Origin: an uncultured Planctomycetaceae bacterium
GTDB taxonomy: Bacteria > Planctomycetota > Phycisphaerae > SM23-33
Assembly (NCBI GenBank): GCA_964392945.1
Contig: CAYMSH010000027.1
Location: 1-24,000 of the forward strand
DNA: 24,000 bases
Reading direction: 5' to 3'
The notes under the pieces are model-generated. The model did no database searches and had not been told where the DNA came from. It saw nothing but the letters and a program-made list of their open reading frames with translations. This document shows, piece after piece, positions 7,559-24,000 of this stretch (the first letter of the stretch is position 1; each line of letters begins with the position of its first letter). Both the position numbers and the translations under genes were made by a program.

Positions 7559-8551
7559 TCATCGCCTTTCCGGCGCGAGCACTACTCGGAATCCGAGTAT
7601 AGCGTAGGATGAGATTTCCGGCGGGATGCTGTATCTCGCCGCCGATCGCAGGAACGGGTGGACCTGCTGGTCGAGGTCCTTCCTGTCGTGGCGTTTCTTG
7701 TCGCCTTTGTGCACGCCGGAGAAGCATCCGCCGCGAACGACTTTTTCGGTTCCCTTGTCCGGTCCGATCGGATCTTTGCTCGCCGACTTGTCGTACGGAC
7801 CGTACCAGTCGAGGCACCATTCGTAGACGTTGCCGTGCATGTCATACAGACCCCAGGCGTTGGGCTTGAGCTCACCGACTTTTCGCGTTCCGAACGATGT
7901 GAAGCTGAACGTCGCGACGTGCGCGAACTTCCTGATCGAGTTCAGATCGCCGGGATCGCACTCGACGTTGTACGGCGTTTTCACGCCCGCCCGGCAGGCG
8001 TATTCCCACTGGGCCTCTGTCGGCAGGCGGTAGACGTAGCCCTTGGGCAGCCGGCCGGCCTTGCGTTCGATTTCGGTCAGCTTGCTGCAGAATTCATTTG
8101 CACGGGCCCAGGTGACGCACTCCATCGGGTTCAGGTCGGTTCGATCTCCGCCCGTGGCGCCGGCTCCGTTTATCAGTCCGCCGCCTCTGGGATATCGCCA
8201 GCAGAACGCCATGCCGTCGTGGATCGGACCGCGTTTGAACCGCCAGGCTTCGTAATCGTAATCCGGCGGGACCATCAGCTTGTAGAACTCGCGCTGGGTC
8301 ACTTCGCAGGCGCCCATGTAAAACGGCTTGGAGATCGTGACTTTGTGCGCCGCTTCGTCGCTGCGTCGGCACAGTTCGCCGGCCGGGCTGCCCATCGTAA
8401 ACGAACCGGCCGGGATGAGCTTCATCTTCATCTCGATGCTCGGTACGGTGTAATCCTTGTCGCTCAGCAGCTTGGGTCGATCGCCGTCCTTGCCGACAGA
8501 TATCCCGCACAGCAGCGAAAGCAAAACTATATTGATGATCCTTGTCTTCAT
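7559..8551 (-). CDS. Secreted FGE-sulfatase/SUMF1-fold protein, paralog F1 (not a true formylglycine-generating enzyme)
   Basis: N-terminal signal peptide (MKTRIINIVLLSLLCGISVG). Family segments MKLIPAGSFTMGS, EVTQREF, RLPTEAQWEYACRAG, NAWGLYDMHGNVYEWCLDWY, RGGCF, LRSAAR, LGFRVV. Starts 10 nt after the stop of gene A1. Confidence 0.85.
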   Translation of the reverse strand: MKTRIINIVLLSLLCGISVGKDGDRPKLLSDKDYTVPSIEMKMKLIPAGSFTMGSPAGELCRRSDEAAHKVTISKPFYMGACEVTQREFYKLMVPPDYDYEAWRFKRGPIHDGMAFCWRYPRGGGLINGAGATGGDRTDLNPMECVTWARANEFCSKLTEIERKAGRLPKGYVYRLPTEAQWEYACRAGVKTPYNVECDPGDLNSIRKFAHVATFSFTSFGTRKVGELKPNAWGLYDMHGNVYEWCLDWYGPYDKSASKDPIGPDKGTEKVVRGGCFSGVHKGDKKRHDRKDLDQQVHPFLRSAARYSIPPEISSYAILGFRVVLAPERR

Positions 8552-8561
8552 GATCCTGCCT

Positions 8562-11500
8562 TTATTTAACTGGTGCGGGCCTCTTCGTAACGATCGGTCC
8601 GCGTGCTCGTTTGATCCACTTCTGCATCAGCGGCAGGTCCTTGATCTCGCCGGAGACTTCCTGCCTCATCCGCCAGTCCCAGTCGATAGTAGTGCTCCAG
8701 CCGCCGCCGGAGGCCTCTGATTTCTGCAGCCGCTCGGCCAGAGGGATATCCTCGCGCTGCGTGGCGCCGCCGAGCTGGATCTTTACGTGCTCGCTGATGT
8801 AGCGGCTGTAGTTGGTGTTGTAGTAACCGCGATAGACCTGGTAGGCGAAGCTGTCCATCCAGAGCTTCTCCGGCGAGTAGCGCAGCATCGCCTTTTTGTG
8901 CGTCTTGGACAGTTCTGTCTTCGCCGCGGCTACCTGCAGGACCATCGCGGCGGTCCCCTTGGCCATGTAGGCGTCGCGCTTGCCGCGAAGCATGCGATCT
9001 TTCTCGCCGGCGAGTTTGTCCAGGCGCCGCTGCTCGGCGATCTGCTCGGGATTAGCCTTGTTGAGCTCGTCGGACAAAGCCCGCTCGCGTTTACGGTATT
9101 TGTCGTGAATCTCTCGCGGGAGCTTTGACAGCGCAGCGTACTCGGCGTCGCCGTTGCGGTAGTCGCTGAAACGCTTGTTCAACGCCCGATCGCGATCCGA
9201 GGCGGCCTTGCGGGCAGTTTCATCCTTGAGCTTCCGCTGTGCATTGATCGCCTTGCGTTCGACGATCACGTCGGGACGTTTTTCGAATTCCTCCCGGAGT
9301 TTCCTGTCCCGCGCGCGGCGTTTTTCTTCGGCGTCTTTGCGCTGTGCGTTCAGCGCCGTCAGCTCCTTGTCGGTCTTGATGCGTTCTCTCAGAAGCGTAT
9401 GGATCTTCGAACGAATCTCTGACGACTGCTTTCGCAACGCGTCAATTTCGGCCCTGGCCTCCAGCGAGTCCGGCTGTTTGTCGAACTTGGTTGCGAGATC
9501 CTTTTTGCTGTCGGCCATCTTCTTTTCGACCGCCTTTAATTTCGCCTCGGCCGCGGCCAGTTGGGGCCAGCGTTTTTCAAGTTCCCTGGCCCGGGCTCCC
9601 TGCTCGGTTTGGTATTTGCCGTAAGGTTCGTTTAGTTTGCGGCTCATCTCGGACATCTTGCGGTTAAGCTCGCTGCTGTCGCCGCGAGCGGCGGCCAGGG
9701 CTTTGACCACTTCCAGCGTGGGTCGCCTCGGCGCATCGCGAGTCGGAGCCGGAACCTTGCTGAAATCTTCGTGAACGGTGTGGTGGATCACAACGCTGTC
9801 GATCACGCCCTTGAAACGGCCCGACCCGTCGCGCGAGGTCGCAATGAAGTTGCGATTGTCTCCGCCGTCGGCGAACAGATCTCGCGGGCGGAATGTCGAA
9901 GCCTTCTCGGCGATCTTCTTCCCGTTCAGCCAGAGCGCGGTCTTAGTTCCGTCGATCTCGACGCGAACAGTCGCCCACTTGCCTTTGGCCAGCGGTTTGG
10001 CGCCGTCGAGCGAGACAATCGTCTTGCCGCCGACTTGCGCCCTCAGCGTCAGAGCGGTTGTCAGAACCAGGCGACTGTCGGCGCTCGAGCCGAAATCGAG
10101 AATCGTCTGCGAGCCGGCGCCTTCGGGTTTGACGGAGACTTGAACGGTCATCGCCTTGAGATCCGCCCCGCGCGGGGCCAGTTCACCGTACTGCGTTTGG
10201 CCGTCGAAACGAAGACCGCGTCGCTGGCCGTCGATTACGAATTCGGGGCGAGCATACAGGTAGCCGTCGAGGTTCAGACCCAGCCGCTTTCCGTATCGCC
10301 TGTCGGCTCCGCTGGGGAATCGGTACCAATCCTCCAGCAGCGTGTTCTCGCCGCGGTCCATCGCGTAGTTGGCCCAGAGGGAGTATTTGTGCAGCGTTTC
10401 CTCGCCGAGGCGTTTGATCGGATCGGCGATGCGCGGGGCCAGCGCCGCGGGGGCGGCGCCTATCAGCTTGATCGACCAGGGGTAGCGAGGAGCGTGGCGG
10501 CCGCTGTAGAGATTCCTGGCCAACTGCCTGTCGGTGAACAGCGCCGTCGGCGTCGCGGCGACGCTCAACCAATAGCCCTTGTCGCCGTGGCGAGTTTTCA
10601 GCTTCATCAGGCCCTTGTTCCACATCGGGCTGTAGCGTCGCACGCCGTCGGCTCCAACGGCGATTATGCACGCGCGCCAGTCGCTGTAGAGATCCGGATC
10701 GTGCCGACCGGTGAAATCGACAGCGATCTCGGCGGCGCCTTTGGCAGCGGTCAGGCTCACGATGTTAACGCCGAACGGCTCGGGCGCCTGTTCCATCGGA
10801 ATACGGTAAGCGCCGGCCTTGCCGTTGACCGGTTCGAGCTGACTCTGGGCCGGGCTCCGGTATCGGCCGGCGAACAGGTTCTCAAGCTCGCAGTCGAATG
10901 TCGCCAGGCGGGCTCCGTATTGGCCGAACATGTCGCCAAGTCCGCGGATACCGTTTTCAAACAGACCGCGCTGCTGTCCGACACGGGCCATGCTCTGCAG
11001 CATGCAGAACTCATCGACTCCGTGCGGCAGGCAGGTGAAATAAGCGTATCCCCAGTTCGGATCGTCACAGGTGATGTTGTAGAACATCGTGTATCCGTAT
11101 CCGAGGTCGCCGTTAAACACGTGCCTCCAGGGCGTCTTGATGTGGTGGTTGCCCTTGAGCATGCTCGGGTCGGCCATGCATTGGTGCATGTCGGCCTGGG
11201 CCTCGCCGCCGCCGATCCGTATGCTGTTGGGCAGGCTTCCGTGACCCCATTCGTGCCACAGGGCCGGAGCCCAGGGCCCGCCGCCGGCGCCTTTAAGAAT
11301 ACAGGCCCCGTATCCGCCGCCGGCGTAACCGCCGATAAACTGGTGCCCGTCGCGCTTCGTGCCGGCTACGGTGATCGCATGCTTGAACTTCTCTTTGCGG
11401 TCCCAGTACTCCATCAGGTTGCCGGCGTATTCGTTCAGGTCCCACCAGTACTCGGCGCACTTGATCGAGCCGTCTCGGTACCACTGGGCCTTGTCGGGCG

Positions 11501-11927
11501 CCTTGTCGTTGACCCACGGGTCGCCCTCGCTGCCGGCCTGGCTGCCGGATACCCATATGAAATGCGGCGACTCGACCTGCATGGTCCCGGGCTTGCCGGG
11601 CTTGGCGTTGTTGGGCCATCTTACGTCCAGGGACGGCGACTTGACGTAAACGGTCTTGTCGAGCCCGGCTCGGATGCGGGCCATCTCTTTGACGTACAGG
11701 TCCATGATGAACTTCTTGTCGGCGCCGTCGAAGCTGCCGCGAACGAAGCATCGCTTCCGCCCGTCGGCCAGCCGCAGCACAACGCCCGGGGCCCACGGAC
11801 CGCCATCGCCGTTGAACTTGCTGCTCATGGTGTTGCCCATGCCGCGGAAGCCGATCAAGTGCGCCTTGAACGGCTTGTCGCCAACGGACACATGCGATCG
11901 TTTCGGCGTCCAGGTGCGAAGGATCAT
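8562..11927 (-). CDS. Large HExxH / LamG-like / coiled-coil protein, paralog A1 (uninterrupted part; see the in-frame TAG upstream)
   Basis: 1121-aa ORF. HEWGH at 11241-11255 followed by a conserved GGGE (possible third zinc ligand). LamG/ConA-like segment about 9762-10250 (FDGQTQY...LDFGSS...WATVRVEIDG...LWLNG). K/E/R/A-rich predicted coiled coil about 8898-9695. Trp-rich tail (WSTTIDWDWRMRQEVSGEIKDLPLMQKWIKRARG). Paralogous to 15815-19783. Confidence 0.8.
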   Translation of the reverse strand: MILRTWTPKRSHVSVGDKPFKAHLIGFRGMGNTMSSKFNGDGGPWAPGVVLRLADGRKRCFVRGSFDGADKKFIMDLYVKEMARIRAGLDKTVYVKSPSLDVRWPNNAKPGKPGTMQVESPHFIWVSGSQAGSEGDPWVNDKAPDKAQWYRDGSIKCAEYWWDLNEYAGNLMEYWDRKEKFKHAITVAGTKRDGHQFIGGYAGGGYGACILKGAGGGPWAPALWHEWGHGSLPNSIRIGGGEAQADMHQCMADPSMLKGNHHIKTPWRHVFNGDLGYGYTMFYNITCDDPNWGYAYFTCLPHGVDEFCMLQSMARVGQQRGLFENGIRGLGDMFGQYGARLATFDCELENLFAGRYRSPAQSQLEPVNGKAGAYRIPMEQAPEPFGVNIVSLTAAKGAAEIAVDFTGRHDPDLYSDWRACIIAVGADGVRRYSPMWNKGLMKLKTRHGDKGYWLSVAATPTALFTDRQLARNLYSGRHAPRYPWSIKLIGAAPAALAPRIADPIKRLGEETLHKYSLWANYAMDRGENTLLEDWYRFPSGADRRYGKRLGLNLDGYLYARPEFVIDGQRRGLRFDGQTQYGELAPRGADLKAMTVQVSVKPEGAGSQTILDFGSSADSRLVLTTALTLRAQVGGKTIVSLDGAKPLAKGKWATVRVEIDGTKTALWLNGKKIAEKASTFRPRDLFADGGDNRNFIATSRDGSGRFKGVIDSVVIHHTVHEDFSKVPAPTRDAPRRPTLEVVKALAAARGDSSELNRKMSEMSRKLNEPYGKYQTEQGARARELEKRWPQLAAAEAKLKAVEKKMADSKKDLATKFDKQPDSLEARAEIDALRKQSSEIRSKIHTLLRERIKTDKELTALNAQRKDAEEKRRARDRKLREEFEKRPDVIVERKAINAQRKLKDETARKAASDRDRALNKRFSDYRNGDAEYAALSKLPREIHDKYRKRERALSDELNKANPEQIAEQRRLDKLAGEKDRMLRGKRDAYMAKGTAAMVLQVAAAKTELSKTHKKAMLRYSPEKLWMDSFAYQVYRGYYNTNYSRYISEHVKIQLGGATQREDIPLAERLQKSEASGGGWSTTIDWDWRMRQEVSGEIKDLPLMQKWIKRARGPIVTKRPAPVK

Positions 11928-11990
11928 CCCGGGCTTAACATCGATAACATCGACACCCTTCCGCGGCCACCAGTCAACGAGTCGCGCCTA

Positions 11991-12158
11991 GTAAGCCTTC
12001 GGCTCGCCATTAACCCACAGAGTGACATTGCACCCAACCCACCCCGGTTTGAGCTTGGCGCCAGGATACCGCGTAGCGGAATAAAAATCATATTCCCCAG
12101 CCGCACCGGCACAAATAAACCCCACACACACAATCGTAACTATAAGTTTGATTCTCAT
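11991..12158 (-). pseudogene. Detached N-terminal fragment of A1 (signal peptide plus conserved N-terminal region), same frame as 8562-11927
   Basis: MRIKLIVTIVCVGFICAGAAGEYDFYSATRYPGAKLKPG...GEPKAY, then TAG (11988-11990), then in frame ARLVDWWPRKGVDVIDVKPGMILRTWT. It aligns with the A2 N-terminus (GGYDFFAPARYPGAG...GYQRRVVNWWPRKGVDIIEVKDGMPLRTWT). Confidence 0.7.
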
Positions 12159-12187
12159 AATATCCCTACATCCGTCCGCAGTATCCG

Positions 12188-12315
12188 CCACCAGCCACCA
12201 GCCGTTAGCCGTTAGCCGTTGCCGTTATCCGTATTATCCGCCGTTACATGCCGTTTGTTGTTTGCCGTCGCCGTTGCCGTAACCAAATCCGTGCCATCCG
12301 TGTCATCCGTGGTGG
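12188..12315 (-). repeat. Degenerate short tandem repeats / GGA-rich tract in the B1-A1 intergenic leader
   Basis: Plus strand: CCACCAG x2, GTTAGCC-like heptamers, then three 9-nt-phased (A/C)ATCCGTG units (12286-12311). On the coding (minus) strand these read CACGGAUG, CACGGAUG, CACGGAUU. There are nine GGA triplets in 12159-12335, one of them in the A1 Shine-Dalgarno. Confidence 0.7.
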
Positions 12316-12335
12316 AAAAAAGTCGTTGCCGTTGT

Positions 12336-15300
12336 CTACTTCGCCGCGATCGGCGCCATGCGGAAGTCCGGGCGGTCCTTGTCTCTAGGGTCGCGATAGC
12401 CTTTGTGCGTACCGTAGTACGGTACGTTGGCGTCGATCCAGGTTACGATCTTGACGAAGTCGGCCTGGGTCAGATTCTCTTTGCACGGGGCTTTGCGAAT
12501 CTGTCCGACCAGGCTGCTGCGATGCGAGCCGTGTGTCAGCGGCGGGACGGCCGGGAAGCCAGCCTGGCCGTAGCGTCCATCGCGATAGTTGACCAGTCCC
12601 TTGCCGATGATATTCTCGTAAGATCGGTTATATCGCTGGGTCAGCGCGTCGGTCAGGTCGAGGCGGCCTTTGGGTTTGGCGCCGCTGTGGCAGGAGACGC
12701 ACTTTTTGTTCCAGATCGGCTGCACGTCCGTAACGTAGTGGACCATGCGAACGCCTGTGTCGCCGGGTTGGGCGGCGATGGTCTGGGGCTTCTGGGTTAT
12801 CGCAGTCGGCCTGGTCTTGAGGGCCGGAGCCTTCCTTCGCAGCTCGTGGCAGCCGATGCAGGATCGGTGCTCCCCGGGCATGAGGTTGATGAACGTGGGC
12901 ATGTGCTGCAGGGCCATGTAGTCTTTGTCCAGCGCCTGGAAGAAGATGTTCTTTTTCGCCGGCGCGTTGAAGTACGCCGATCCGTCGGGGTGGACCTTGA
13001 CCACGCCGTAGACCCGCTTGCGATGGACATCGACATTCATGCCCATGCCGCCGTTGGGGTCAGTCCAGGGCCAGGCCAGGGCGCCCATCACGCGAACGTA
13101 TTTCACCCGGCCGCGCTCGATGCCGGTCATACCCTCGTAGATATCCTGGATGAAGACCGTGCCAGTCGTTGGCGGCTTCTTGCTGTTGGACTCGACGGCG
13201 GCGATCTGTCCGGGCTTGATGCGGGAAAGCAGCGGGACCGGCTGGTAGCAGTTGAAATTCGGGTCACTATAGAGCTTGGCTCGATTGCCCCAGGAGTCCA
13301 GCACATAGAGCCCGTAGCGTGAGGCCCTGCTGAGCTGGTGGGAGACCAGGAAGAACTTCTCGGAGAACGGGAACGGGTCCATGAAGACCCCGTGCCTGCT
13401 GGAGGGGTATCCCATCGAGTGCGGATATCCGACGGCCGGGGTGATGCAGTTCATCGCCTCGGTTGTGCGACGATTGCGGCGCGAGTCTACGAGAACCACC
13501 GAGCCGACGGCGTTGTAGTGATGTCCGCCGCCGATTGTCACTATGCGCTTCGAACCGGGAATCTCTCGCGAGCCGCTCATGCCTGCCGGCCAGACCGTGT
13601 TGTTCTTGTATATGTGTTCGACGCCGGTTCCGTCGGGTCGAATCGCCCAGATGCCGGCCCCGTTGCCCAGGCCCTTGTCAACGTACTCCCATCGCGTGTA
13701 GAGCACGCGTCCGTCGGAGAGGATCGTCGGAGAGGTTTCATTGACCGGGCTCTTGGAAAGCTGGCGAACGTTCTTGCCGTCGGCGTCCATGATGTACAGC
13801 GTCGAAACTCCTGACCCCGCAGCGCAGAAAACGTTATGCATCGCGCGGGTCGAGGTGAACATTATCTTGCCGTTGGGCAGGTAGCACGGGTCCATGTCGT
13901 CAAAGAAACGGGCCCCTTTCCGCACCACGTCGCACCGCCTGCCCTCGTCTTCGGCGGCGCTGGTGAAAGTAAGCTGGGTCAGCGAGCCGGGGATCATTTT
14001 CCCCGCAGCGGGGTCGAGCTTGATTTCGTACAGTCGGAAGGCGTCGTCGGGCTTCTTCCTGTAGGCGAAGATCAGCCGCCTGGCGTCGAACGACAGGTCG
14101 AACCGATCGAACAGTCCGCCTTTAAGCTCCGGCACGAGGTTTGTAACTTTGCCTTCGGCCCCGATCGGCGAAAGGACGCAGATGGCTCCGCCCATTTCCC
14201 TGGCGCCCTGGTCGTTGTAGGTATGTCCGTAGTGAGTTGTGTCGGGGCGCTTGAGGAACAACAGTTTCTTACCGTCGAACTTCAGCGCCGGATGGCTCAG
14301 CATTGCGTCGCGGCGCATGAGAGTAAGCGAATCGTGCATTTGCTGCAGCTCTTCGGGACCGCCTTCGGCGTTGACCTTGGCCTGAGCGCCTTCGAGTTTC
14401 GACAGTTGTTTGAGCCACTCGGCGCCGCCGGGATACCGAGCGCCGTAAGTCGCGGCGGTGTCGGCGATCGCCATACGCAGCGTGGCGGTGTTGACCGCGC
14501 CCGGGGCCAGGAACACGTTGCGATAGCGCGGCTCGACCCTTGTCAGGTCGACTGTTCGCAGCGGCGGGCTCCATCCGGCCGGAAGTTTTTCCGGTGCGTC
14601 GAGGCGCAGCTCGGCCAGGTTCGGCAGCGGTCCGCTCCGGGCGAACTTCAGCGTGTGCCTGCCTTTGGGGATCGACACCTTCAGAGGCGGAGCCCACAGC
14701 GCGTATCTGCTGGACCACGTGGTCAGGATCGGATTCTCGAACGGCGCCGAGCCGAACGTCACGCCGTAGCAGCATTTGCCCAACGGCTTGTTGTCCAGGA
14801 ACACGTTGACCGGGCGGGCCTTGGCCGCGGCGTATTTAACGTTAAGCAAGTACTCGCCGCTGACCGGAACACTGATATCGTATTCGACGAACACCTGTTT
14901 GGCTCCGACCGGTCCGCCGCCGGCGAGCGTGCCGAAGTCGGCGTAATGGTCCGGGTTCGAGTAGATCTCGGCGTTCCCGCGATCGAACGTGCACGCGTCG
15001 ATCGTAATCGATCCGGGCGGGCGGGGTTTGCGCCTGGGCGGAAGCTCGGCGGGGGCTCGCATCGCCGCGACGTCAATCTTGCTCGATGCGGCCAGCGACT
15101 TGCGAAACTCCGCCGGGATGCTCTGGATGTCGCGCACCTTGAACTTCGGCGGACTCCAACTGTCGGGAAACGCTTCATCGGTATCCAGGCGCAACGCAAC
15201 GAGGTTCGGCATCGGGCCGCGACGGGTGATCTTTATCGTCTTAACGCCTTTAGTGGTCTTCAGGACAACAGTGCTATGTTTCGTCGAAACGGTTTCCCAT

Positions 15301-15674
15301 CGAGCAGCGCTTGACGCGGCGCTGCGTTTGTCGGATTTCGGGGCAAACGTTACGCCGGTGCACGTCTTGGCCTCGTTCCGGGCGTCGAAGAACAGTTCAA
15401 CCGGACGGGCCTCAGTAGCGGTATAGAGGATATGGATCGTGTACTGGCCGTCAACGGGAATATCGACGTCGTATTCGACTGTCCAGCCCCAGGGCTTCTT
15501 CTCGCCGCCGACTACGATCGGCCCGGCGTCGGCGAGCTTGCCCGGATCGGCGTCAATCCGAACGTTTCCGCGAGCGAACGACCAGGCGGGAATCGTCAGC
15601 GATCCGGCGTCGGCCTGTATCGCAAGGCCCAGAATCGCCAGTAGAATCAAAGCCAGACGCGATCCGATCTTCAT
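12336..15674 (-). CDS. Secreted multidomain protein, paralog B1: two CBM-like repeats + PD40/TolB-like beta-propeller + tail with two CXXCH motifs
   Basis: Signal peptide MKIGSRLALILLAILGLAIQADA from ATG 15674, with GGAG SD. Two internal repeats share (F/C)xFxRGN...YxxxxARPVxxF...GPxPNLxxLRLD. Propeller-like segments (DGKxxF, VNETSPTILSDGRVLYTRWEYVDKG). CIGCH at 12846-12860 and CVSCH at 12687-12701; the second sits in a PSCyt1-like context (CVSCHSGAKPKGRLDLT). Confidence 0.8.
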   Translation of the reverse strand: MKIGSRLALILLAILGLAIQADAGSLTIPAWSFARGNVRIDADPGKLADAGPIVVGGEKKPWGWTVEYDVDIPVDGQYTIHILYTATEARPVELFFDARNEAKTCTGVTFAPKSDKRSAASSAARWETVSTKHSTVVLKTTKGVKTIKITRRGPMPNLVALRLDTDEAFPDSWSPPKFKVRDIQSIPAEFRKSLAASSKIDVAAMRAPAELPPRRKPRPPGSITIDACTFDRGNAEIYSNPDHYADFGTLAGGGPVGAKQVFVEYDISVPVSGEYLLNVKYAAAKARPVNVFLDNKPLGKCCYGVTFGSAPFENPILTTWSSRYALWAPPLKVSIPKGRHTLKFARSGPLPNLAELRLDAPEKLPAGWSPPLRTVDLTRVEPRYRNVFLAPGAVNTATLRMAIADTAATYGARYPGGAEWLKQLSKLEGAQAKVNAEGGPEELQQMHDSLTLMRRDAMLSHPALKFDGKKLLFLKRPDTTHYGHTYNDQGAREMGGAICVLSPIGAEGKVTNLVPELKGGLFDRFDLSFDARRLIFAYRKKPDDAFRLYEIKLDPAAGKMIPGSLTQLTFTSAAEDEGRRCDVVRKGARFFDDMDPCYLPNGKIMFTSTRAMHNVFCAAGSGVSTLYIMDADGKNVRQLSKSPVNETSPTILSDGRVLYTRWEYVDKGLGNGAGIWAIRPDGTGVEHIYKNNTVWPAGMSGSREIPGSKRIVTIGGGHHYNAVGSVVLVDSRRNRRTTEAMNCITPAVGYPHSMGYPSSRHGVFMDPFPFSEKFFLVSHQLSRASRYGLYVLDSWGNRAKLYSDPNFNCYQPVPLLSRIKPGQIAAVESNSKKPPTTGTVFIQDIYEGMTGIERGRVKYVRVMGALAWPWTDPNGGMGMNVDVHRKRVYGVVKVHPDGSAYFNAPAKKNIFFQALDKDYMALQHMPTFINLMPGEHRSCIGCHELRRKAPALKTRPTAITQKPQTIAAQPGDTGVRMVHYVTDVQPIWNKKCVSCHSGAKPKGRLDLTDALTQRYNRSYENIIGKGLVNYRDGRYGQAGFPAVPPLTHGSHRSSLVGQIRKAPCKENLTQADFVKIVTWIDANVPYYGTHKGYRDPRDKDRPDFRMAPIAAK

Positions 15675-15693
15675 GGCAAATCTCCGTAAAAGA

Positions 15694-15741
15694 CACTGAA
15701 ACAACAGAATACCATTCTACACGTAACGCGGTGTTTCAGTG
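15694..15741. promoter_or_regulatory. 10-bp perfect inverted repeat with a nested palindrome in the divergent B1/A2 intergenic region
   Basis: CACTGAAACA (15694-15703) and TGTTTCAGTG (15732-15741). A nested AGAAT-ACC-ATTCT lies at 15706-15718. The element is 20 nt upstream of the B1 ATG and about 75 nt upstream of the A2 ATG. Confidence 0.45.
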
Positions 15742-15814
15742 AGAATTTCTCTTTTCTGGAATATTCGTAGGCCTTTGTCGTATAACTTCCTAGTCCCTAC
15801 ACAGGAGTCTTTTA

Positions 15815-18800
15815 ATGGCCAAACGGGTATGCGTGTTATGCTTGATGTTACTGGTCCCGGCGACCTCGGCGAGCGCGGGCGGGTACGACTTTTTCGCCCC
15901 GGCGCGATACCCCGGAGCCGGCAGGGCGCCAGGCGTCGATCTGTATAAGGTCAACCAGGCCGGCGGGCCGTCCGCCGCGGGCTACCAACGCCGCGTCGTT
16001 AACTGGTGGCCTCGCAAGGGCGTCGATATCATCGAAGTCAAAGACGGCATGCCGCTGCGAACCTGGACCATGCGCGACAGGAAGATGGATCCCGACGCCG
16101 TCGGCGAGCACCTGATGCTCGGGATCGAGACGCTGACCAGGCGACTGAGCTGGAACTGGAAGCGAGTTGGCAAATTCAAGGCCCGCCTGATCGCCTTCCG
16201 GGGGATAGGTAATCGTTACGGCAATCCGTTCGAACCGGGCGAGTATCACTGCCCGGGCGTCGTGCTGCTGCTGGAAGACGGGACTAAGCGATGCTTCACC
16301 CGAGGCACGTTCATCGAGGCCGACGAAAAGTACATTCTGGCCCTCTACCTCAAGGAGATGGCCCGCCTCCGCGCCAACGGCCCGAAAGACAAGTTCCAGC
16401 TCGTGGAAAACAGGTTAAGCCGCTGGCCCGACAACGCCAAACCGGGCCAGCCCGGGACCATGCGCGTCGAGAGCGAACACATTGTCTGGGTCTCCGGTTC
16501 GCAACACGCCCCGAACGAGAAATACAGCCCGTGGGTCGATCGCGACTATCCGGAAAAGGCCCGTCTCTATCGCGAAGGTTCAGTTGCGTTCGGCGAGGAC
16601 ATGTGGTCCTACCACGCATACGCCGGCGTGCTGATGCCGTACTGGGACCGCACCGAACAGCACAAGTATGTCGTAACAGTAGTCGGCACCTACCGTGACG
16701 GGCACCAGTGGCTCGGCGGTTACGCCGGCGGCGGATACGGCGGGTGCGGAATTAAATTCGCCGGCGGCGGGCCCTGGGGACTCGTCCTGGCCCACGAATG
16801 GGGACACGGACTGCCGATAAGCGCCCCAGTCGGAGCAGGCGGCGGGGAGACAGTCTCGGACGCATGCCAGGCCATATGCGATCCCGCAGCGCCGATGTTC
16901 TACCAGAACGCAAAGAGGCCCTGGCGGAACTGCATGCACGAGGGATACGGAACGTGCCTGTTCTACGGGATCATGGGCGACGATCCCAACTGGGGATACG
17001 CCATGGCGATCACCCCGCCGGTAGGCGCCGGCGAGAAATCGGTCTTCCACACACTGGCTCGCGTCGGCCGGCAGCGCGGGCTCTTTGAAAACGGCGTCCG
17101 CGGCGTCGGCGACATGATGGGCGAATTCGCGGCCCGCCAGGCCGAATTCGACTGCGAAATACGCGAGAACCTGCGGCGCGATCACATCTCGGTCAAGCGC
17201 AACTGGCTCGAGGCGGTCGATCGCAAGACCGGTCTGTACCGAATACCGTGGGGCGAGTCGCCGGAAATGTTCGGGGCGAACATAATTCGCCTCGTGTCGA
17301 AAAAGGGCGCATCCGAGATTTCCGTAGACTTCCGCGGATTCTACGACCCCGACACCCGCGGCGACTGGCGGGCGTGTATCGTGGTCGTCGGAGCCAATGG
17401 AAAAGTTCGCTACTCGCCGCTCTGGAACAAGGGCGTAATGAAGATCGCGATCGGGCCGACAGATCGCCGGTTCTGGCTGACGGTGGCCGCCACTCCCACA
17501 GCGCTGCCTACCCCTGAAGGAGGCGGGATCGGAGCCATGCTATACGGGCGCCACGCCTACCGTTATCCGTACGAAGTAAAACTCTCCGGCTGCAAACCGG
17601 GCACGCCGCACAACATGCCCGGCGATGTTGACGACTACGGGCTGTCGTATCTCGGGGGCTTTCGGAGCAGGTTCGACGGCGGGGTATGCGTGATCCCGCA
17701 CCCCGGCGACAGCGCCGAAGCTGCGATCCTGAACAAGGCCGTAGCCCCGCTTCGGGCCCAGATCGATAAGGTCAAAGATGCGGCCAAACGCTTCCTGGCC
17801 GAAGACAAGATCGACACGAAACACTACCGCTACCTCCGCCGATTCAAACCGCACCTGGCGTTCCTGGACAACTGCGTAAACTGGATGCTCGACGGGACAA
17901 AAGGCTCGCGACATCCCAACGGCGGCGGATGGGTCAGCGCCTCGTCCACAGTGGCGCCGACGGCGTACGTGGCGCCGGATGCGATGGTGCTCTACGGAGC
18001 CAAGGTGCTCGACAATGCGGCGATCGAAGATTACGCTGTGATCAAGGGACCCAAAACGGTGGTCTCGGGGCACGCCAAGGTCAGCGGCCAGGCGTATGTC
18101 GCAGGCGACGTGAAGATCGGCGGACACGCGCGAGTGGTCCATCCGATCATCTCCGAAGACGTACAGGTAACGCCGAATGAAGTTCCGCTGCGCCCGTTCC
18201 AGGAAAAGAATGACGGTAAGAAACTCTGGGCCAACTACTCCATGGACCGCCCCGAAACCCAAGTGCTGGAAGACTGGTTCCGGTACAAGGACAGCCACGG
18301 TATCCGCGGGATGTTCTACGTGCTGAGCCTGAACGGGCATCTCTGCGGTAAGCCTGAATTCTTCATCGATGGCGATCGGCGAGGATTCGCTTTCGACGGC
18401 AAGACCCAATACGCAGAAGCCTCGCCGCTCCTGGCCGACCTGGGGCAGATCACGATCGATATCGCCGTCAAGTTCGAACGCAGCGGCGCTCAGACGCTCT
18501 TTGATTTCGGCAGTTCTCCCGATAACTGTTTTGTGTTGAAAACTGTGCGACACGGCAAGCCGGAGTTAGTCGCGAAGGTAAGCGGTAAGACCGCTGTAAC
18601 GCTGACAGGCGACAAAGCGGTTTCGCCGAACAAGTGGGTTTCGATCCGCGTGGAAATTGACGGCGACAAGGCGTCGCTCTGGATCGATAATCGAAAAGTC
18701 GCACGGAAGGCGTCAAGTTTCCGCCCTGCTGATGCGTATCCCGCCGGAGCCGAAAAACGCAACTTCATCGCCGCCGGCAGAGATGCGACGGGACACTTCA

Positions 18801-19783
18801 AGGGCAAGCTGGACTACCTGCGCGTCTACCACGCGGTCTTCGATGATTTCGCCAAGGCCCCAGCGCCGCGCCGCCACGCCCCGCGGAAGATCACCAGCGA
18901 GTTCATCGAAACCTGCAGCAAACTCTACGAAGGATCGGCCGCCAAACGCTCGGCCGCAATAGACGCCAAACTCAAGCCACAGTACGCCTTCTATGAAGCG
19001 ATGGCCAAACGCAGAAGCGAACTGCTCAAAGAAATCCAAAGCGCCGACTCGCAAGCCGTCGCCGACGCCAACCGCAAACGCGATGAGATCAACGGGAAAC
19101 TCAGCCAGCGCACGCGCGAGCTGCGAACCGAGTTCGACAAGCTCCCCGAAACGATCAGGAAACAGGCCGAATACCGCAAGCTCGAAGACCAGGTGCGCAA
19201 ACTAGACACGCAACGCCGCGAAGCGATAAAACAGTTCGAAGCCAAACACAAAATCGACAAGAACGATCGCAACCAGCGGCGGCGTATTGGCAAGCTGGCC
19301 GAACGGGACCCGGCGATCGCGAAACTGGCCCGCGAGATCAACGCCTTGAGAACTCGCGCCAGGTCGCAGCGGCCCAATGCAAGGGCCTACGTCGATCAGC
19401 GAACTGTCGAATTGAGACAGCAGGTCACAAGGGCCGGCGTGGCTGTTCAAAACGCGGTCAAACAGAACACGGCCGCCAGGAAGCCCGAGTACGACTGGCT
19501 TACGTCGCTGGGCTGGATCGCCTACAGCAGGCATTACAACTATCCGTACAAGTCGTACATGCAAAAGAGAATCGGGAGGACCGTCGGCGGGAAGATCTGC
19601 CACGAGAATTTCGGTTCGCTGAAGTCGATCATGAATTTGCAGAACAAGACCCAATGGCGATCGACGTGCGATTGGGAATGGCGGCTGAAAAAGGAACTCG
19701 ACGGTTCGATCAAGGATCTCCCGCTGATGCGTAAGTGGCTCAATCGCGTGCGAGGGACAGTTAACGGCGAACGACAGGAATAG
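15815..19783 (+). CDS. Large HExxH / LamG-like / coiled-coil protein, paralog A2 (intact, with signal peptide and an extra insertion)
   Basis: 1322 aa. AGGAG SD 8 nt upstream. Signal peptide MAKRVCVLCLMLLVPATSASA. HEWGH at 16793-16807 plus GGGE. LamG-like segment (FDGKTQY...FDFGSS...WVSIRVEIDG...LWIDN). K/E/R-rich coiled coil. Trp-rich tail (CDWEWRLKKELDGSIKDLPLMRKWLNRVRG). Confidence 0.85.
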   Translation: MAKRVCVLCLMLLVPATSASAGGYDFFAPARYPGAGRAPGVDLYKVNQAGGPSAAGYQRRVVNWWPRKGVDIIEVKDGMPLRTWTMRDRKMDPDAVGEHLMLGIETLTRRLSWNWKRVGKFKARLIAFRGIGNRYGNPFEPGEYHCPGVVLLLEDGTKRCFTRGTFIEADEKYILALYLKEMARLRANGPKDKFQLVENRLSRWPDNAKPGQPGTMRVESEHIVWVSGSQHAPNEKYSPWVDRDYPEKARLYREGSVAFGEDMWSYHAYAGVLMPYWDRTEQHKYVVTVVGTYRDGHQWLGGYAGGGYGGCGIKFAGGGPWGLVLAHEWGHGLPISAPVGAGGGETVSDACQAICDPAAPMFYQNAKRPWRNCMHEGYGTCLFYGIMGDDPNWGYAMAITPPVGAGEKSVFHTLARVGRQRGLFENGVRGVGDMMGEFAARQAEFDCEIRENLRRDHISVKRNWLEAVDRKTGLYRIPWGESPEMFGANIIRLVSKKGASEISVDFRGFYDPDTRGDWRACIVVVGANGKVRYSPLWNKGVMKIAIGPTDRRFWLTVAATPTALPTPEGGGIGAMLYGRHAYRYPYEVKLSGCKPGTPHNMPGDVDDYGLSYLGGFRSRFDGGVCVIPHPGDSAEAAILNKAVAPLRAQIDKVKDAAKRFLAEDKIDTKHYRYLRRFKPHLAFLDNCVNWMLDGTKGSRHPNGGGWVSASSTVAPTAYVAPDAMVLYGAKVLDNAAIEDYAVIKGPKTVVSGHAKVSGQAYVAGDVKIGGHARVVHPIISEDVQVTPNEVPLRPFQEKNDGKKLWANYSMDRPETQVLEDWFRYKDSHGIRGMFYVLSLNGHLCGKPEFFIDGDRRGFAFDGKTQYAEASPLLADLGQITIDIAVKFERSGAQTLFDFGSSPDNCFVLKTVRHGKPELVAKVSGKTAVTLTGDKAVSPNKWVSIRVEIDGDKASLWIDNRKVARKASSFRPADAYPAGAEKRNFIAAGRDATGHFKGKLDYLRVYHAVFDDFAKAPAPRRHAPRKITSEFIETCSKLYEGSAAKRSAAIDAKLKPQYAFYEAMAKRRSELLKEIQSADSQAVADANRKRDEINGKLSQRTRELRTEFDKLPETIRKQAEYRKLEDQVRKLDTQRREAIKQFEAKHKIDKNDRNQRRRIGKLAERDPAIAKLAREINALRTRARSQRPNARAYVDQRTVELRQQVTRAGVAVQNAVKQNTAARKPEYDWLTSLGWIAYSRHYNYPYKSYMQKRIGRTVGGKICHENFGSLKSIMNLQNKTQWRSTCDWEWRLKKELDGSIKDLPLMRKWLNRVRGTVNGERQE

Positions 19784-19787
19784 ACAT

Positions 19788-20786
19788 ATGAAATCGCGAG
19801 TATTTACGTTGGGACTATTGACGCTGTCGTTGGCGTTTGGGCCTTCCGGGACCGGGGCGGCGCCGTCTGTGCGCGTCAAGCTGCTGGTCGACAAGGATTA
19901 CACCGTTCCGAGCGTTGGGATGAAGATGAAGCTCATCCCGGCCGGTTCGTTTACGATGGGAAGCGCCAAGAGCGAACCGGACCGTCGTGCCGACGAAACC
20001 CAGCACAAGACCACTATCAGCAAACCGTTCTACATCGGCGTCTACGAAGTCACGCAGAAGCAGTACTACGACATAGTGCTGCCGAATTTCGATCACGACA
20101 GTTGGCAGTACTCCCGCGGCCCGCTCCACGCCGGCGCGGCGTTCTTCTACCGAGCCAGGAAGGCCCGCTACGTTTACGAAGGCGGAAAGCTGAACCTCCA
20201 GCATCCGATGGAATGCGTCACGTGGGGCAAGGCGATGGAGTTCTGCAAGCAAATCACCCAACGCGAGCGCAAAGCCGGCCGCCTGCCGAAAGGCTACGTC
20301 TACCGCCTGCCGACTGAAGCTCAATGGGAATACGCCTGTCGCGCCGGGACCAACGGTCCGTACAACGTTGACTGCGACGGAAAGAACGCCAAGCAGCTCA
20401 AGAGCCCCAGGTACCTCAAGAGCTTCGCCAACGTAGGCGAGGGCAAGCCGATCGACGTAGGCCAAAAAAAGCCCAACGCCTGGGGACTCTACGACATGCA
20501 CGGAAACGTTTACGAATGGTGCCTCGACTGGTACGCCCCGTACGCCAAAGGCGACGCCAAGGATCCCGCCGGCCCAGCCGACGGCAAGAAGCGCGTCGCT
20601 CGCGGGGGGTGTTTCAACGGCACAGCTCCTCACGCCCCGCCTGGAGTAATCGCACGGGCCGACAGCTTTTCCAGCATAGGCCCGTTCCTGCGATCGGCGG
20701 CCCGGTCCAGCTTCCACCCCGACGTGAACTTCTACGCCATCCTCGGATTCCGCGTAGTCCTGGCGCCGGAGATCGGTGTGAAATAG
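19788..20786 (+). CDS. Secreted FGE-sulfatase/SUMF1-fold protein, paralog F2
   Basis: 332 aa, starting 4 nt after the A2 stop, with AGGA SD and a signal peptide. Same family segments as F1 (MKLIPAGSFTMGS, RLPTEAQWEYACRAG, NAWGLYDMHGNVYEWCLDWY, RGGCF, LRSAAR, LGFRVVLAPE). Confidence 0.85.
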   Translation: MKSRVFTLGLLTLSLAFGPSGTGAAPSVRVKLLVDKDYTVPSVGMKMKLIPAGSFTMGSAKSEPDRRADETQHKTTISKPFYIGVYEVTQKQYYDIVLPNFDHDSWQYSRGPLHAGAAFFYRARKARYVYEGGKLNLQHPMECVTWGKAMEFCKQITQRERKAGRLPKGYVYRLPTEAQWEYACRAGTNGPYNVDCDGKNAKQLKSPRYLKSFANVGEGKPIDVGQKKPNAWGLYDMHGNVYEWCLDWYAPYAKGDAKDPAGPADGKKRVARGGCFNGTAPHAPPGVIARADSFSSIGPFLRSAARSSFHPDVNFYAILGFRVVLAPEIGVK

Positions 20787-20792
20787 CCTTAT

Positions 20793-23700
20793 CTACTTCC
20801 CGCTGGACGCGATTTTCCCTTCCAGCGGCGGGAGTCGGAATTCCGGATCGTCTTTGTACTTCAGTTGCTTCTTGCCGCGATAGGTTCCGTAATATGGCGC
20901 GTTGGCGTCGATCCAGGTTACTATCCTGACGAACTCGGCCTGGGTGAGTTTGGCTTTGCAGGGGGCTTTTCGGATTCGCCCGACGAGGCTGCTGCGATGC
21001 GAACCGCGCGTCAGCGGAGCGGCCGGTCGGAAACCGGCGCGCCCGTAGCGGCAGTCGGCGTAGCTGATCAGCCCCTTGCCGATTATGTTCTCGTAGGAAC
21101 GATTCCACATGCCCGTCAGTTCGCCTGTCAGCACGAGATTGCCTTTGGGATTCTTCTCGCCATGGCAGCCGACGCAATGCTTGTCGAGAATGGGTTGAAT
21201 GTCTGAAGCGTAGTGGACCATTCGCGGGCCGGTCTCGCCGGGTTGGGGCTTAAGGCTCTGCGGAGCGTGCTTTATCGCCGTGGGCCTGGTCTTCAGGTTC
21301 GGGGCGTTCTTGCGCAACTCGTGACATCCGATGCACGACCTGCTCTCGCCGGGCATGAGGTTTATCAGCGTGGGCATCTGCTGCAAGGCCATGTAGTTCT
21401 CGTCCAGCGCGTGGAAGAATACGTTTTCCTCGGCCGGTACTTTGAACAACGCCGAACCGTCTTCGTGGACATTCACCACGCCGTAGACCTTCTTGCGATG
21501 CACATCGACATTCATGCCGACAACGTTCATTCCGTGTGCGCCCCAAGGGTACTCCAGAACTCCCATAACTCGCAGGTATTTAACTCTTCCGCGCTTGATG
21601 CCGGTCATGCCGCGGTAGATGTCCTGCAGGAACAGTGTGCCGGTCTGCTCTTTCTTTACGCCGGCCAGTTCGACAGGGGCCAGTTGCAGCGGCTTGCGTC
21701 GCGGACGGAGCGGGATCGGCTCGAGGCACGACAGCTCCGGATCGGAAATGATCTCCGCACGATTGCCCCATGCGTCCAGCGCGTATATCCCATACTCGGA
21801 TCCGCGAGGTTTCTTCTTGGGCTTGGCGCCGGTCTTGCTCGCCGGTTTCGGGCCGGTCTTGTGGGCCGCCAGGAAGAACTTCTCCGAGAATGGATACGGG
21901 TCCATGAAGAAGCCGAACTTGTGTATCGGGTGTCCCATGCAGGGGTACCCGATCTCGGGAGTCAGGCTGTCCATGGCTTTGGTTCCTCGCTTGCCCAGGC
22001 GGGTGTCCAGCAGGATGATCGGACCGACGGCCGTGTTGTGGTGCGTTCCGCCGGTGGTGATGAGCTTCGGGCTTCCGGGAATGCTGCGGACATTGCTCAT
22101 GCCCGCGGGTCGAACGGTGTTGTTCTTGAACACGTGGTCGTTGCCCGTGCCGTCGGGGCGGATCGACCAGAGGCCCTGTCCGTTGCCCAGGCCCTTGTCT
22201 ACGTACTCCCATCGCGTGTAGGCGATGCGACCGTCGTGGAGAATCGAAGGAGCCGTTTCGTTGATCGGGCTGGCCGATATGCAGCGAACGTTCTTCCCGT
22301 CGGCGTCCATAACGTACAGCGTAGTAACCGTGGACCCCGCGCAGAAGACGTTCCGCTGGCTGCGCGTTGAGGCGAACACGATCTTACCGTCGGGCAGATA
22401 ACACGGGTCCATATCGTCAACACCGCGATCGACGCCGCGCCCCTGCCAGGCGTGACACTTGATCGCCTCGGCCTCGGCCGCGTCGCTGAAAGTAAGCTGC
22501 CTCAGCGAGCCGGGCTTCATCAGGCCGGTCTTCGGGTTGAGCTGGATTTCGTAGATGCGGAAGACCTGGCCTCTCTTGTCCTTCTGGTTCTTGTCTATCT
22601 TCTTCTTGTATCCGAAGACCACTCTGGTGGCGTCCCACGACAAATCGAACCGATCGAACAGCCCGCCTTCGAGCTCGGGAATCAGGGGGGTGACCTTCCC
22701 GCCGGGAGCGACAGGCGACAGCAGGCAGATGTTCCCGCCGGAGCCTGTAGCGTGTTGATCGGTGTAGGTGTGCCCGTATCCGCCGGAGGTGCGTTTCAGG
22801 AACAGCAGCTTATCGAACTTCAGCTCCGGATGCGACGTCATGGCCTCGCGACGCAGTGCGGCCAGCGCTTCGTCGGAATCGGGTTTGGCTTCCAGTGCGC
22901 TCAATCGCTTGAGGTATTGCGGCCCGTCGGGATACCGCGATCCGTAGGTCTTGATCGTATCGGCGATCGCCAGCCTCAGGGCTCCGGTGTTGACCGCGTC
23001 TGCCGGCAGGAACGCAGTTCGCTGCCTGGCGGGCACCGCGTCAAGATTCTTGACCTTGCGGGCGGCGAGCTTCCAGCCCTTCTCGAACGGTTTGGATGAC
23101 TCGATTCGGAATTTCACCAGGTGCGGAAGCGGGCCTTTGCGAGCGAACTTCAGCGTGTGCTTGCCCCTGGTGATCGACAGCTTGACTTCTTGTCCGCGTC
23201 TGTCGGTGATGGGCTCCCAAATCTTGGCGGCGCTGCTGGATTCCCACGAGAAAATGATCGGGTGCTCGTACGGAGCCGATCCGAACGTAACGCCGCGACA
23301 CGCCTTGGCCTGGGGCTTACCGTCAACGTAAACGTCCAGCGGTCTGGCGGCCGCAGCGGCGTACTTTACGTAAATCGCATACTCTGCGGTAGCGGGGAAG
23401 TCGATTTCGTATTCGATCGATCCGCTGTCGGCCTGGTGCGACTCGCTGCCGATCAGCGGGCCGAAGTTGGCGTACAGTTCCGGGCTGGCGAAGATTCTGG
23501 CGTTTCCCCGATCGAACGTCCAGGCGTCGATCTCGAATTGCCCAGCCGGTCTGGGCCTGGCCGCGGGCTTAACCGGAGCCCGCAACGCTACAACGTCTGA
23601 ACCGCTCCTGTTCGTCAGGGCCTTGCGAAAAGCCTCCGGAACGCTTTCGATATCGCGCGCCTTGAACTTTGGCGGACTCCAGTCATCCGGAAATGCCTCG

Positions 23701-24000
23701 GCGGTATTCAAACGCAGCGTCACAAAATGCGGAAGCGGTTTGCTGCGTGCGATCTTGACGGTATGGACGCCCTTCTTTGCGATCTTCAGATTGACGAGCC
23801 TGCGCCATTGATTCTTGAGCCCGTCCCACGTGGCGCCGCTGCTGTTGGACGTAAGTTCGCCGCCTGCTGCGGCGAATGTCACTTCCTCGCAGCACTTGCC
23901 CAGGTTCCGCGAACCGAAGAAGACTTCGACCGGTCTGGCGTCAGCGGCCGCGTACAAGATCTCCAGCGTGTAGTCGCCTTTTACCGGGAAGTTGACGTCA
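20793..24000 (-). CDS. Paralog B2 of the CBM-like / beta-propeller / two-CXXCH protein (5' end beyond the window)
   Basis: The reading frame stays open to position 24000. The codons above the listed Met translate DVNFPVKGDYTLEILYAAA, which aligns with B1 repeat 1 (DVDIPVDGQYTIHILYTAT). CIGCH at 21321-21335, CVGCH at 21162-21176. Collinear with B1 throughout. Confidence 0.8.
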   Translation of the reverse strand, partial: DVNFPVKGDYTLEILYAAADARPVEVFFGSRNLGKCCEEVTFAAAGGELTSNSSGATWDGLKNQWRRLVNLKIAKKGVHTVKIARSKPLPHFVTLRLNTAEAFPDDWSPPKFKARDIESVPEAFRKALTNRSGSDVVALRAPVKPAARPRPAGQFEIDAWTFDRGNARIFASPELYANFGPLIGSESHQADSGSIEYEIDFPATAEYAIYVKYAAAAARPLDVYVDGKPQAKACRGVTFGSAPYEHPIIFSWESSSAAKIWEPITDRRGQEVKLSITRGKHTLKFARKGPLPHLVKFRIESSKPFEKGWKLAARKVKNLDAVPARQRTAFLPADAVNTGALRLAIADTIKTYGSRYPDGPQYLKRLSALEAKPDSDEALAALRREAMTSHPELKFDKLLFLKRTSGGYGHTYTDQHATGSGGNICLLSPVAPGGKVTPLIPELEGGLFDRFDLSWDATRVVFGYKKKIDKNQKDKRGQVFRIYEIQLNPKTGLMKPGSLRQLTFSDAAEAEAIKCHAWQGRGVDRGVDDMDPCYLPDGKIVFASTRSQRNVFCAGSTVTTLYVMDADGKNVRCISASPINETAPSILHDGRIAYTRWEYVDKGLGNGQGLWSIRPDGTGNDHVFKNNTVRPAGMSNVRSIPGSPKLITTGGTHHNTAVGPIILLDTRLGKRGTKAMDSLTPEIGYPCMGHPIHKFGFFMDPYPFSEKFFLAAHKTGPKPASKTGAKPKKKPRGSEYGIYALDAWGNRAEIISDPELSCLEPIPLRPRRKPLQLAPVELAGVKKEQTGTLFLQDIYRGMTGIKRGRVKYLRVMGVLEYPWGAHGMNVVGMNVDVHRKKVYGVVNVHEDGSALFKVPAEENVFFHALDENYMALQQMPTLINLMPGESRSCIGCHELRKNAPNLKTRPTAIKHAPQSLKPQPGETGPRMVHYASDIQPILDKHCVGCHGEKNPKGNLVLTGELTGMWNRSYENIIGKGLISYADCRYGRAGFRPAAPLTRGSHRSSLVGRIRKAPCKAKLTQAEFVRIVTWIDANAPYYGTYRGKKQLKYKDDPEFRLPPLEGKIASSGK

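Follow-up and report, generated by a model that had tools for sequence, protein, structure and literature searches.

What kind of system is encoded by a duplicated set of three exported proteins in an uncultured, marine Planctomycetaceae bacterium, and do its members work together? The window analysed here, the 24,000-nucleotide stretch at positions 1 to 24,000 of contig CAYMSH010000027.1 (assembly GCA_964392945.1), holds two diverged copies of this set, each made of a gene A, a gene F and a gene B. A sequence-only reading of the same DNA had described their products as a putative zinc hydrolase, a protein of the formylglycine-generating enzyme (FGE) fold and a propeller protein with haem motifs, and had proposed that the three form one system. 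Judged from homology, A is a secreted zinc peptidase of the Svx family with intact predicted catalytic residues and lectin-like modules. Gene order and sequence comparison indicate that the A and F genes are translationally coupled, co-duplicated, cognately paired and occasionally fused, and B lies non-randomly close to A-F and to an FGE-fold partner of its own. We put at about even chances the reading that the region is an array of glycoprotein- or glycan-degrading modules, with A-F as the core and B as an associate; the A-F pairing is its strongest and a solid part, and the chemistry of B its weakest.

All six proposed open reading frames (ORFs) are present. The first copy lies on the minus strand and comprises B1 (12336..15674; 1112 aa), A1 (8562..12158; nominally 1198 aa, broken by a TAG codon in the window) and F1 (7559..8551; 330 aa). 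In the second copy, A2 (15815..19783; 1322 aa) and F2 (19788..20786; 332 aa) occupy the plus strand, and B2 (20793..24000, minus strand) converges on F2 and is cut by the window edge. About 78 N-terminal residues of B2 fall outside the window, and its full length is 1147 aa in the sibling contig L001. The spacing between A and F is 10 nt in the first copy and 4 nt in the second, as previously claimed. Paralogy of the two gene sets, also proposed earlier, is certain: in BLASTP comparisons, F1 and F2 are 54% identical over 334 aa (E=7e-127), B1 and B2 are 56% identical over 1082 aa (E=0), and A1 and A2 share 50% identity in the N-terminal 541 aa and 34% in the C-terminal 605 aa. Export signals had been assigned to every member. 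By a hydrophobicity-based call (basic start, hydrophobic core and small residues before a likely cut), predicted signal peptides are found on F1, F2, A2, B1 and the start of A1 upstream of the TAG, while the N-terminus of B2 is visible only in the sibling contig. There the array continues past the window with B2, then B3 (1179 aa) and F3 (317 aa), the latter ~31% identical to F1 and F2. Beyond F3 lies an incomplete ORF of at least 1745 aa (L042 1-5238) with LamG, cadherin/Ig-like, PA14/GLEYA and fn3 domains, in which CopC and dockerin are also matched weakly; its domains suggest a giant surface protein of the adhesin type at the head of the F3-B3-B2 array.

Previously described as a putative zinc hydrolase, A can be placed in the DUF6055 / Svx-AvrXca gluzincin family. 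Both A proteins pass the Pfam threshold for DUF6055 (74-78 bits, cut-off 27) over profile positions 250-415 of 417, and carry a Laminin_G_3 (LamG) domain and a long helical tail, in agreement with the earlier domain calls. The NCBIfam Svx/AvrXca model NF040510 is matched by A1 (1e-17) and A2 (2.5e-32), the A2 match taking in the beta-helix part of the model; these matches span only model positions ~292 to 535 and reach 64 and 112 bits, short of the full-length cut-off of 625. Homology over the catalytic domain is reached through intermediates. An exhaustive phmmer search with A2 residues 1-600 against 1.84 billion representative proteins returned 333 matches at E<=1e-3, of which 57 reach E<=1e-30, numbers small enough to suggest a small family. 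Intermediate proteins of 650-975 aa (P0296, P0298, P0300, P0301, P0310 and others) align to A2 142-596 across HExxH at ~30% identity, with E-values of 1e-21 to 3e-30 for the five named, and the same proteins match DUF6055 at 33-415 of 417 and the Svx model at 28-568 of 601. They also show beta-helix-type matches and, in five of seven cases, LamG. Because these intermediates span both the A2 catalytic region and the Svx/DUF6055 models, A is placed as a divergent branch of this family, its homology to Svx/DUF6055 across the catalytic domain being transitive and drawn from sequence comparison.

The predicted zinc site supports this placement. In A1, HEWGH is encoded at 11255-11241 and the third ligand, Glu242, at 11204-11202 (feature 11202..11255, minus strand); in A2, HEWGH lies at 16793-16807 and the corresponding Glu345 at 16847-16849. 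An alignment of 68 homologs shows no variation at H225, E226, H229 and E242, which are the H, E and H of HEWGH and a Glu 12 residues past the second His. An AlphaFold model of A1 (predicted local distance difference test score, pLDDT, 89.7; predicted template-modelling score, pTM, 0.83) shows, from N to C terminus, a mixed, zincin-like sheet with the motif helix and a Glu-bearing helix, a beta-sandwich, LamG, ~330 aa of long helices and a small conserved C-terminal domain. A2 has the same architecture plus an insert of ~200 aa (about aa 596-800) of the hexapeptide or left-handed beta-helix (LbH) type, which is absent from A1 and is identified by a Hexapep match (E=0.008), Svx model positions 458-535 and LpxA-type Protein Data Bank (PDB) matches. 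When PDB sequences were searched with a profile of A, only hexapeptide-repeat acyltransferases were recovered, for this insert. DUF6055 has been equated with MEROPS family M106 and called undescribed (PMC11241649).

The closest characterised relative is Svx of Pectobacterium atrosepticum, a secreted, Zn-dependent and EDTA-inhibited gluzincin with a His-Glu spacing of X22 (PMC9266454). Svx cuts plant extensins and requires its LbH domain to recognise their arabinan side chains, so that its choice of substrate is set by an accessory domain that reads glycans (PMC13164431). Like Svx, A is predicted to be secreted and to carry an HExxH...E zinc site followed by a beta-sandwich, with, in A2, a left-handed beta-helix 'acyltransferase-like' domain, and the sequence homology is significant and collinear. 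Unlike Svx, A has an additional conserved N-terminal region of ~140 aa, LamG and the ~330 aa helical tail with its C-terminal domain; A1 lacks the beta-helix, and the His-Glu spacing is 12 instead of 22. Moreover, A has a near-obligate FGE-fold partner gene, whereas the Svx papers cover a peptidase and LbH only, and A occurs in bacteria of the Planctomycetes-Verrucomicrobia-Chlamydiae (PVC) group, whereas Svx occurs in Proteobacteria. A is thus, by its domain composition, a new and architecturally extended variant of the Svx family. A functional analogy is offered by the M60-like O-glycopeptidases and mucinases, gluzincins with an HExxH...E site whose lectin-like modules steer them to glycosylated proteins and whose genes sit among glycoside hydrolase (GH) genes. 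Their domain set and partner proteins differ from those of A, and no sequence or profile match of A to M60-like families was found.

F was said to look non-catalytic, and its sequence bears this out. F1 and F2 match Pfam PF03781 (FGE-sulfatase) at 6e-41 and 1e-43, over profile positions 5-226 of 255. When F2 is aligned to solved FGEs (1e-15), the alignment ends at residue 276, just ahead of the catalytic segment. At the location of the copper-binding cysteine pair of FGE, a Cys-x4-Cys after the conserved RGG is found in none of 44 F and F' sequences from the window (F1 and F2), its extension (F3) and related loci, where F' denotes an FGE-fold protein paired with B; the loop from RGG to RSAxR varies in length among them. 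F is therefore, as far as its residues tell, a non-FGE member of the C-type-lectin-like fold that would be unable to make formylglycine. A role as a true FGE for neighbouring sulfatases was rejected on the missing Cys pair and on the signal peptide of F. The best PDB sequence matches of F2 are Treponema TvpA (8e-22), PvdO (2e-19) and PorK (2e-14), and NCBIfam matches of F to PvdO, GldK, GldJ and EgtB all remain far under their cut-offs (93-95 bits against 350 for GldK/PorK; 90-130 bits against 500 for PvdO). Like F, the proteins PvdO, PorK/GldK and TvpA are exported, have the FGE fold and lack the copper-binding Cys pair. They differ in context, since no pyoverdine genes, type IX secretion system (T9SS) genes, including the PorL/M/N type, or diversity-generating retroelement genes were seen near F, which is defined by its pairing with A, as F' is by its pairing with B. 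Identification of F as a T9SS PorK/GldK protein or as PvdO was accordingly set aside on both score and gene context.

How general the A-F pairing is was addressed by a profile-guided scan with one genome per species, which yielded 38 A-anchored loci, all from metagenome-assembled genomes (MAGs). The locus titles name Planctomycetaceae, Phycisphaerae, Kiritimatiellia, Verrucomicrobia/Akkermansiaceae, Victivallales and one bin labelled Clostridiales, and the modules are almost confined to the PVC group, with a few protein or locus labels of Sumerlaeota, Clostridiales and Nealsonbacteria. By tblastn and ORF mapping, an F gene adjoins 31 of the 33 A genes with a conserved tail, across four PVC lineages (27 directly downstream on the same strand and four directly upstream), and a GH127 gene takes the place of F at the other two. 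Pairs are cognate: an A of the A1 type goes with an F of the F1 type, and A2 with F2, in 22 of 27 pairs (r=0.91), the five exceptions being near-ties or cases with a second F gene. A-F orthologs of either type in other PVC classes are 60-85% identical to the window copy, compared with ~50% between the paralogs. Orthologs closer than paralogs indicate that the duplication is old and that the A-F pair was duplicated as a unit, and together with the cognate pairing they uphold the earlier suggestion of an old duplication held under selection. In one protein, P0127 (1819 aa), A and F are fused in the order of the genes. Paralogs of A at 33-35% identity recur as neighbours. A proposed link between the helical tail of A and an adjacent F was dropped, as the seemingly 'tail-less' A' paralogs (1300-1480 aa) have tails that are merely divergent.

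The third component, described earlier as a propeller protein with haem motifs, has a recognisable hydrazine synthase (HZS) alpha fold. In Pfam, B1 matches the middle domain HZS_alpha (2e-21) and, weakly, PD40 and cytochrome c; it also has two CXXCH motifs, which had been called correctly before. The only PDB sequence match of B is HZS alpha (5C2V chain A), and Foldseek of the B1 model (pLDDT 85.6) again places 5c2v_A first (E=7e-27, template-modelling score 0.61 over 790 columns), followed by TolB-type propellers. In the model, two N-terminal beta-sandwiches and a helical linker precede a body of beta-propeller, middle haem domain and C-terminal cytochrome c domain, the two CXXCH motifs falling in the middle and the C-terminal domain, respectively. 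The predicted haem-binding motifs of B1 are CIGCH (12860-12846) and CVSCH (12701-12687; feature 12687..12860, minus strand), and those of B2 lie at 21335-21321 and 21176-21162. Both motifs and the propeller motif RWEYxDKG are invariant in 61 B homologs, and the CXXCH spacing is kept in all B genes. The N-terminal repeats of B1 reach CBM_35 only below threshold, and homologs carry Pfam CBM_6 or CBM_35, which are carbohydrate-binding module (CBM) families. From sequence and model together, B is thus a CBM-bearing, putative two-haem protein of the HZS-alpha fold.

Could B then act on nitrogen compounds? HZS alpha of Kuenenia stuttgartiensis (5C2V) has the same three-part body as B, whereas B adds two CBM6/35-like modules and the helical linker and is without the Tyr591 ligand. 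The first haem motif reads CIGCHELRR in B and CSGCHYGSY in HZS, which aligns an Arg with the haem-ligating Tyr591, and no Tyr appears in the family consensus. Tyr591 is the proximal ligand of haem alpha-I, is specific to anammox bacteria and is missing from other non-anammox homologs as well (PMC12758564). No second gene with at least two CXXCH motifs, as expected of a beta/gamma-like subunit, is present in the window or beside B in any A-anchored locus, and B reaches 57 bits with the NCBIfam hydrazine_alpha model, whose cut-off is 800. On these three grounds, an identity of B as hydrazine synthase was rejected. The published non-anammox clades of HZS_alpha homologs are reported to have beta/gamma (cytochrome c peroxidase-like, CCP-like) and FG-GAP neighbours, and the survey that describes them makes no mention of FGE, sulfatase or carbohydrate links (PMC12758564); B, in contrast, has no neighbours of those kinds and stands beside DUF6055 peptidases and FGE-fold proteins.

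B is a frequent and facultative neighbour of A-F. It occurs within 10 kb at 14 of the 38 A-anchored loci, or at 12 of the 18 that span at least 15 kb. Among seven B homologs on long contigs, which served as a B-anchored set, a DUF6055 gene lies within 10 kb in six and FGE-fold genes in four. The three families hence co-occur beyond the source genome, as the earlier proposal anticipated. Its view of A-F-B as a single system holds for the tight A-F core and does not extend to an obligate trio, as B often brings an FGE-fold partner of its own. F'-B-B(-B) arrays resembling the F3-B3-B2 array beyond the window are present in L046, L047 and L049, F'-B also in L042, and in L016 a 1297 aa fusion joins two NPCBM domains, an HZS_alpha body, cytochrome c and FGE. 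The A-F pairing, taken with F'-B pairing and fusion, indicates that FGE-fold proteins partner both A and B. BamB/PQQ_2-like propellers of ~440 aa lie beside B in relatives (L046 13522-14856; L047 1-874 and 21008-22333; L048 16461-17777; L050 5383-6720 and 13528-14844) and are absent from the window, although they recur in the neighbourhood of B; they could represent an additional component of it. In the literature that could be searched on DUF6055, HZS_alpha, FGE-sulfatase and PVC taxa, we found no description of the A-F-B association, of the A-F pairing or of F'-B pairing and fusion.

The wider neighbourhoods point to glycans. GH127 genes occur at eight loci, sulfatases at six and GDSL esterases directly upstream of A at four, with GH95, GH106, GH32/43, GH78, GH10 and BNR sialidases as further neighbours. 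Genomes also hold several copies (one Akkermansiaceae MAG, for example, has five loci), which is typical of substrate-specific degradative repertoires. GH127 is the beta-L-arabinofuranosidase family, and its genes stand beside A in both Verrucomicrobia and Planctomycetota (L013 12685-14454, L021 11119-13053 and L045 16167-18083, as well as L026, L004, L009, L024, L027 and L034). Since Svx targets arabinosylated extensins, this adjacency is suggestive. PVC bacteria are important degraders of sulfated algal polymers and of sinking particles.

On the favoured reading of a degradative module array, A and F would most likely form one extracytoplasmic enzyme in which F serves as a non-catalytic recognition or regulatory subunit. 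This enzyme would cut the core of heavily glycosylated proteins or proteoglycans, which may be sulfated and would come from algae or particulate matter; this substrate class is suggested by the analogy to Svx and extensins and by the glycoside hydrolase, sulfatase and esterase neighbours. B would most likely perform a glycan-targeted redox step on the same substrate class, and not nitrogen chemistry. The A-F complex, its substrate class and the redox role of B are what we infer; the pairing of the genes is observed.

Several findings weigh against this reading. The catalytic N-terminal half of A has no direct Pfam or NCBIfam match, the matches beginning only at profile position ~250; A scores far under the Svx equivalog cut-off (64-112 against 625 bits); and its His-to-Glu spacing is X12 against X22. 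Foldseek of A against the PDB returned LamG-type matches only, so that the zincin fold rests on the motif, the secondary structure and transitive homology. No carbohydrate-active enzyme (CAZyme) genes are found in the window or in several related loci (L047, L049), and GH127 acts also on glycans that are not protein-linked. Genes for an electron donor or acceptor of B are lacking in its vicinity. Finally, B is missing at six of the 18 long A-anchored loci and at all Akkermansiaceae A-F loci, and it occurs without A-F in L044.

The last of these observations lead to the best-surviving alternative, in which A-F is a two-protein peptidase and B, with F', a separate enzyme that shares the same islands, with no three-part system at all. 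The B-B-B arrays and the FGE-fold partner that B has for itself fit such independence well. Nevertheless, a DUF6055 gene accompanies B in six of the seven B-anchored loci, B1, A1 and F1 run in the same direction with short spacers in the window, and the pairing of both A and B with FGE-fold proteins suggests a common logic. We regard this alternative as unlikely, although it is the one to be taken most seriously.

A second alternative centres the system on redox chemistry. FGE-fold proteins would be PvdO-like oxidases or cofactor carriers, B would exchange electrons with them and A would process the product, so that glycoproteins or glycans that are cross-linked or recalcitrant would be oxidatively modified or cleaved. 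F3 aligns to the PvdO model (130 bits) and to the FGE Pfam profile over their full lengths, the L016 fusion physically links HZS_alpha, cytochrome c and FGE, both haem motifs of B are invariant, and BamB/PQQ_2-like propellers recur beside B. F and F', however, have no conserved Cys pair or obvious metal site, and all of the scores are sub-cut-off; the PQQ_2 proteins are BamB-sized and their PQQ matches faint, and such chemistry is not known for this pairing of folds. This account is clearly improbable in our judgement.

A third possibility is an envelope or surface structural apparatus, a PVC analogue of the lipoprotein rings of the GldJ/GldK type, with the tail of A as a fibre or strut. It draws on the matches of F to GldK/PorK (93-95 bits), to GldJ and to solved PorK structures, on the ~330 aa of long helices in A and on the predicted export of all the proteins. 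Yet F falls far short of the GldK cut-off of 350 and has no further T9SS or gliding genes in its vicinity, the zinc-peptidase residues of A do not vary, and a multi-copy, variable and island-like distribution with CAZyme neighbours is unlike that of a core machine. We consider it very improbable. That B is a nitrogen-cycle enzyme acting on hydroxylamine, nitric oxide or ammonia, as its full HZS-alpha fold and both haem motifs might suggest, is scarcely credible given the Arg at the Tyr591 position in a CIGCHELRR motif without Tyr, the lack of a beta/gamma-like or other multi-haem gene nearby, and N-terminal CBM-type modules and neighbours that point to glycans.

Each component of the array belongs to a known fold or family, and nothing in it is categorically new. 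If the favoured reading of a degradative array is true, it would supply a first functional context, testable and unrelated to nitrogen, for many proteins with an HZS_alpha domain, namely glycan or glycoprotein turnover, and would bear on the origin of hydrazine synthase. It would likewise widen the Svx family from a virulence factor of plant pathogens to a degradative enzyme of PVC bacteria that is widespread in marine and fresh waters and has an obligate lectin-fold partner, and would make FGE-fold proteins recurrent partner subunits of extracytoplasmic enzymes in these bacteria. The candidate complex is small and well defined, which makes it directly testable by expression and assay. A bolder proposal is that CBM-bearing dihaem proteins of the HZS-alpha fold, with their FGE-fold partners, constitute a new class of extracellular, carbohydrate-targeted haem enzymes of PVC bacteria whose oxidative attack on recalcitrant glycoproteins or polysaccharides would be concerted with A-F, this glycan-linked redox function being the ancestral niche that gave rise to anammox HZS alpha by recruitment. 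Such a class would be comparable in role to lytic polysaccharide monooxygenases (LPMOs) and cytochrome-dependent systems; we hold it to be a long shot.

The integrity of A1 needs separate comment. The ORF at 8562-12158 had been taken as open, and it contains an in-frame TAG at codon 57 (11990-11988), leaving a longest clean ORF that begins at 11927 and excludes the signal peptide. The same codon is GAG in the sibling metagenome contigs L001-L003, where A1 is intact at 1198 aa. These contigs match the window at 99.85-99.89% identity over 12-14 kb (L001, 99.85% over 14.2 kb), and nearly all window-sibling differences fall in one anomalous patch of 65 nt (11987..12051) with 14 substitutions, every one a transversion; L002 and L003 terminate inside or beside it. 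Since this cluster of transversions has no counterpart in the siblings and two contig ends fall there, the patch is probably an assembly or consensus artefact and A1 not a pseudogene, with a real hypervariable spot as the less favoured possibility. A diversity-generating retroelement was considered because the best PDB match of F is a variable protein of such an element, and was rejected: the window encodes no reverse transcriptase, the patch lies at the A1 N-terminus and not in a C-type-lectin C-terminus, and all 14 changes are transversions at a point where sibling contigs break. Eight further mismatches to L001 cluster in A2 (window 16500-17500) and are not seen against L002 and L003; they probably reflect strain variation in the peptidase domain. 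Upstream of A1, the 177 nt B1-A1 spacer (12159..12335) is dense in short tandem repeats (AACGGCT, ~4.9 copies; TGGTGGC, 2.4; CGGCAA, 3.2; ATCCGTGCC, 2.8). Promoter and terminator scans gave signals no higher than shuffled controls.

The array is flanked in the window by a complete RNA-repair locus (253-7545). On the minus strand it encodes KptA/Tpt1 (253-807), RtcB (842-2245), RtcA (2248-~3270) and a Ro60-like protein with TROVE and vWA domains (4138-5739), and on the plus strand the sigma-54 activator RtcR (5920-7545). RtcB also adjoins the A-F pair of L046, as in the window. Between the Ro60 and RtcA genes, as many as four Y-RNA-like (YrlA) genes form an array (3381-3950, minus strand), with profile scores of 72 bits, over the gathering score, for 3381-3507, 59 for 3552-3694, 44 for 3861-3950 and 28 for 3710-3840. 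The longest RtcA ORF, in which the RtcA Pfam match starts at residue 72, overlaps at its 5' end with the first of them, and the overlap suggests that the RtcA start probably lies further downstream.

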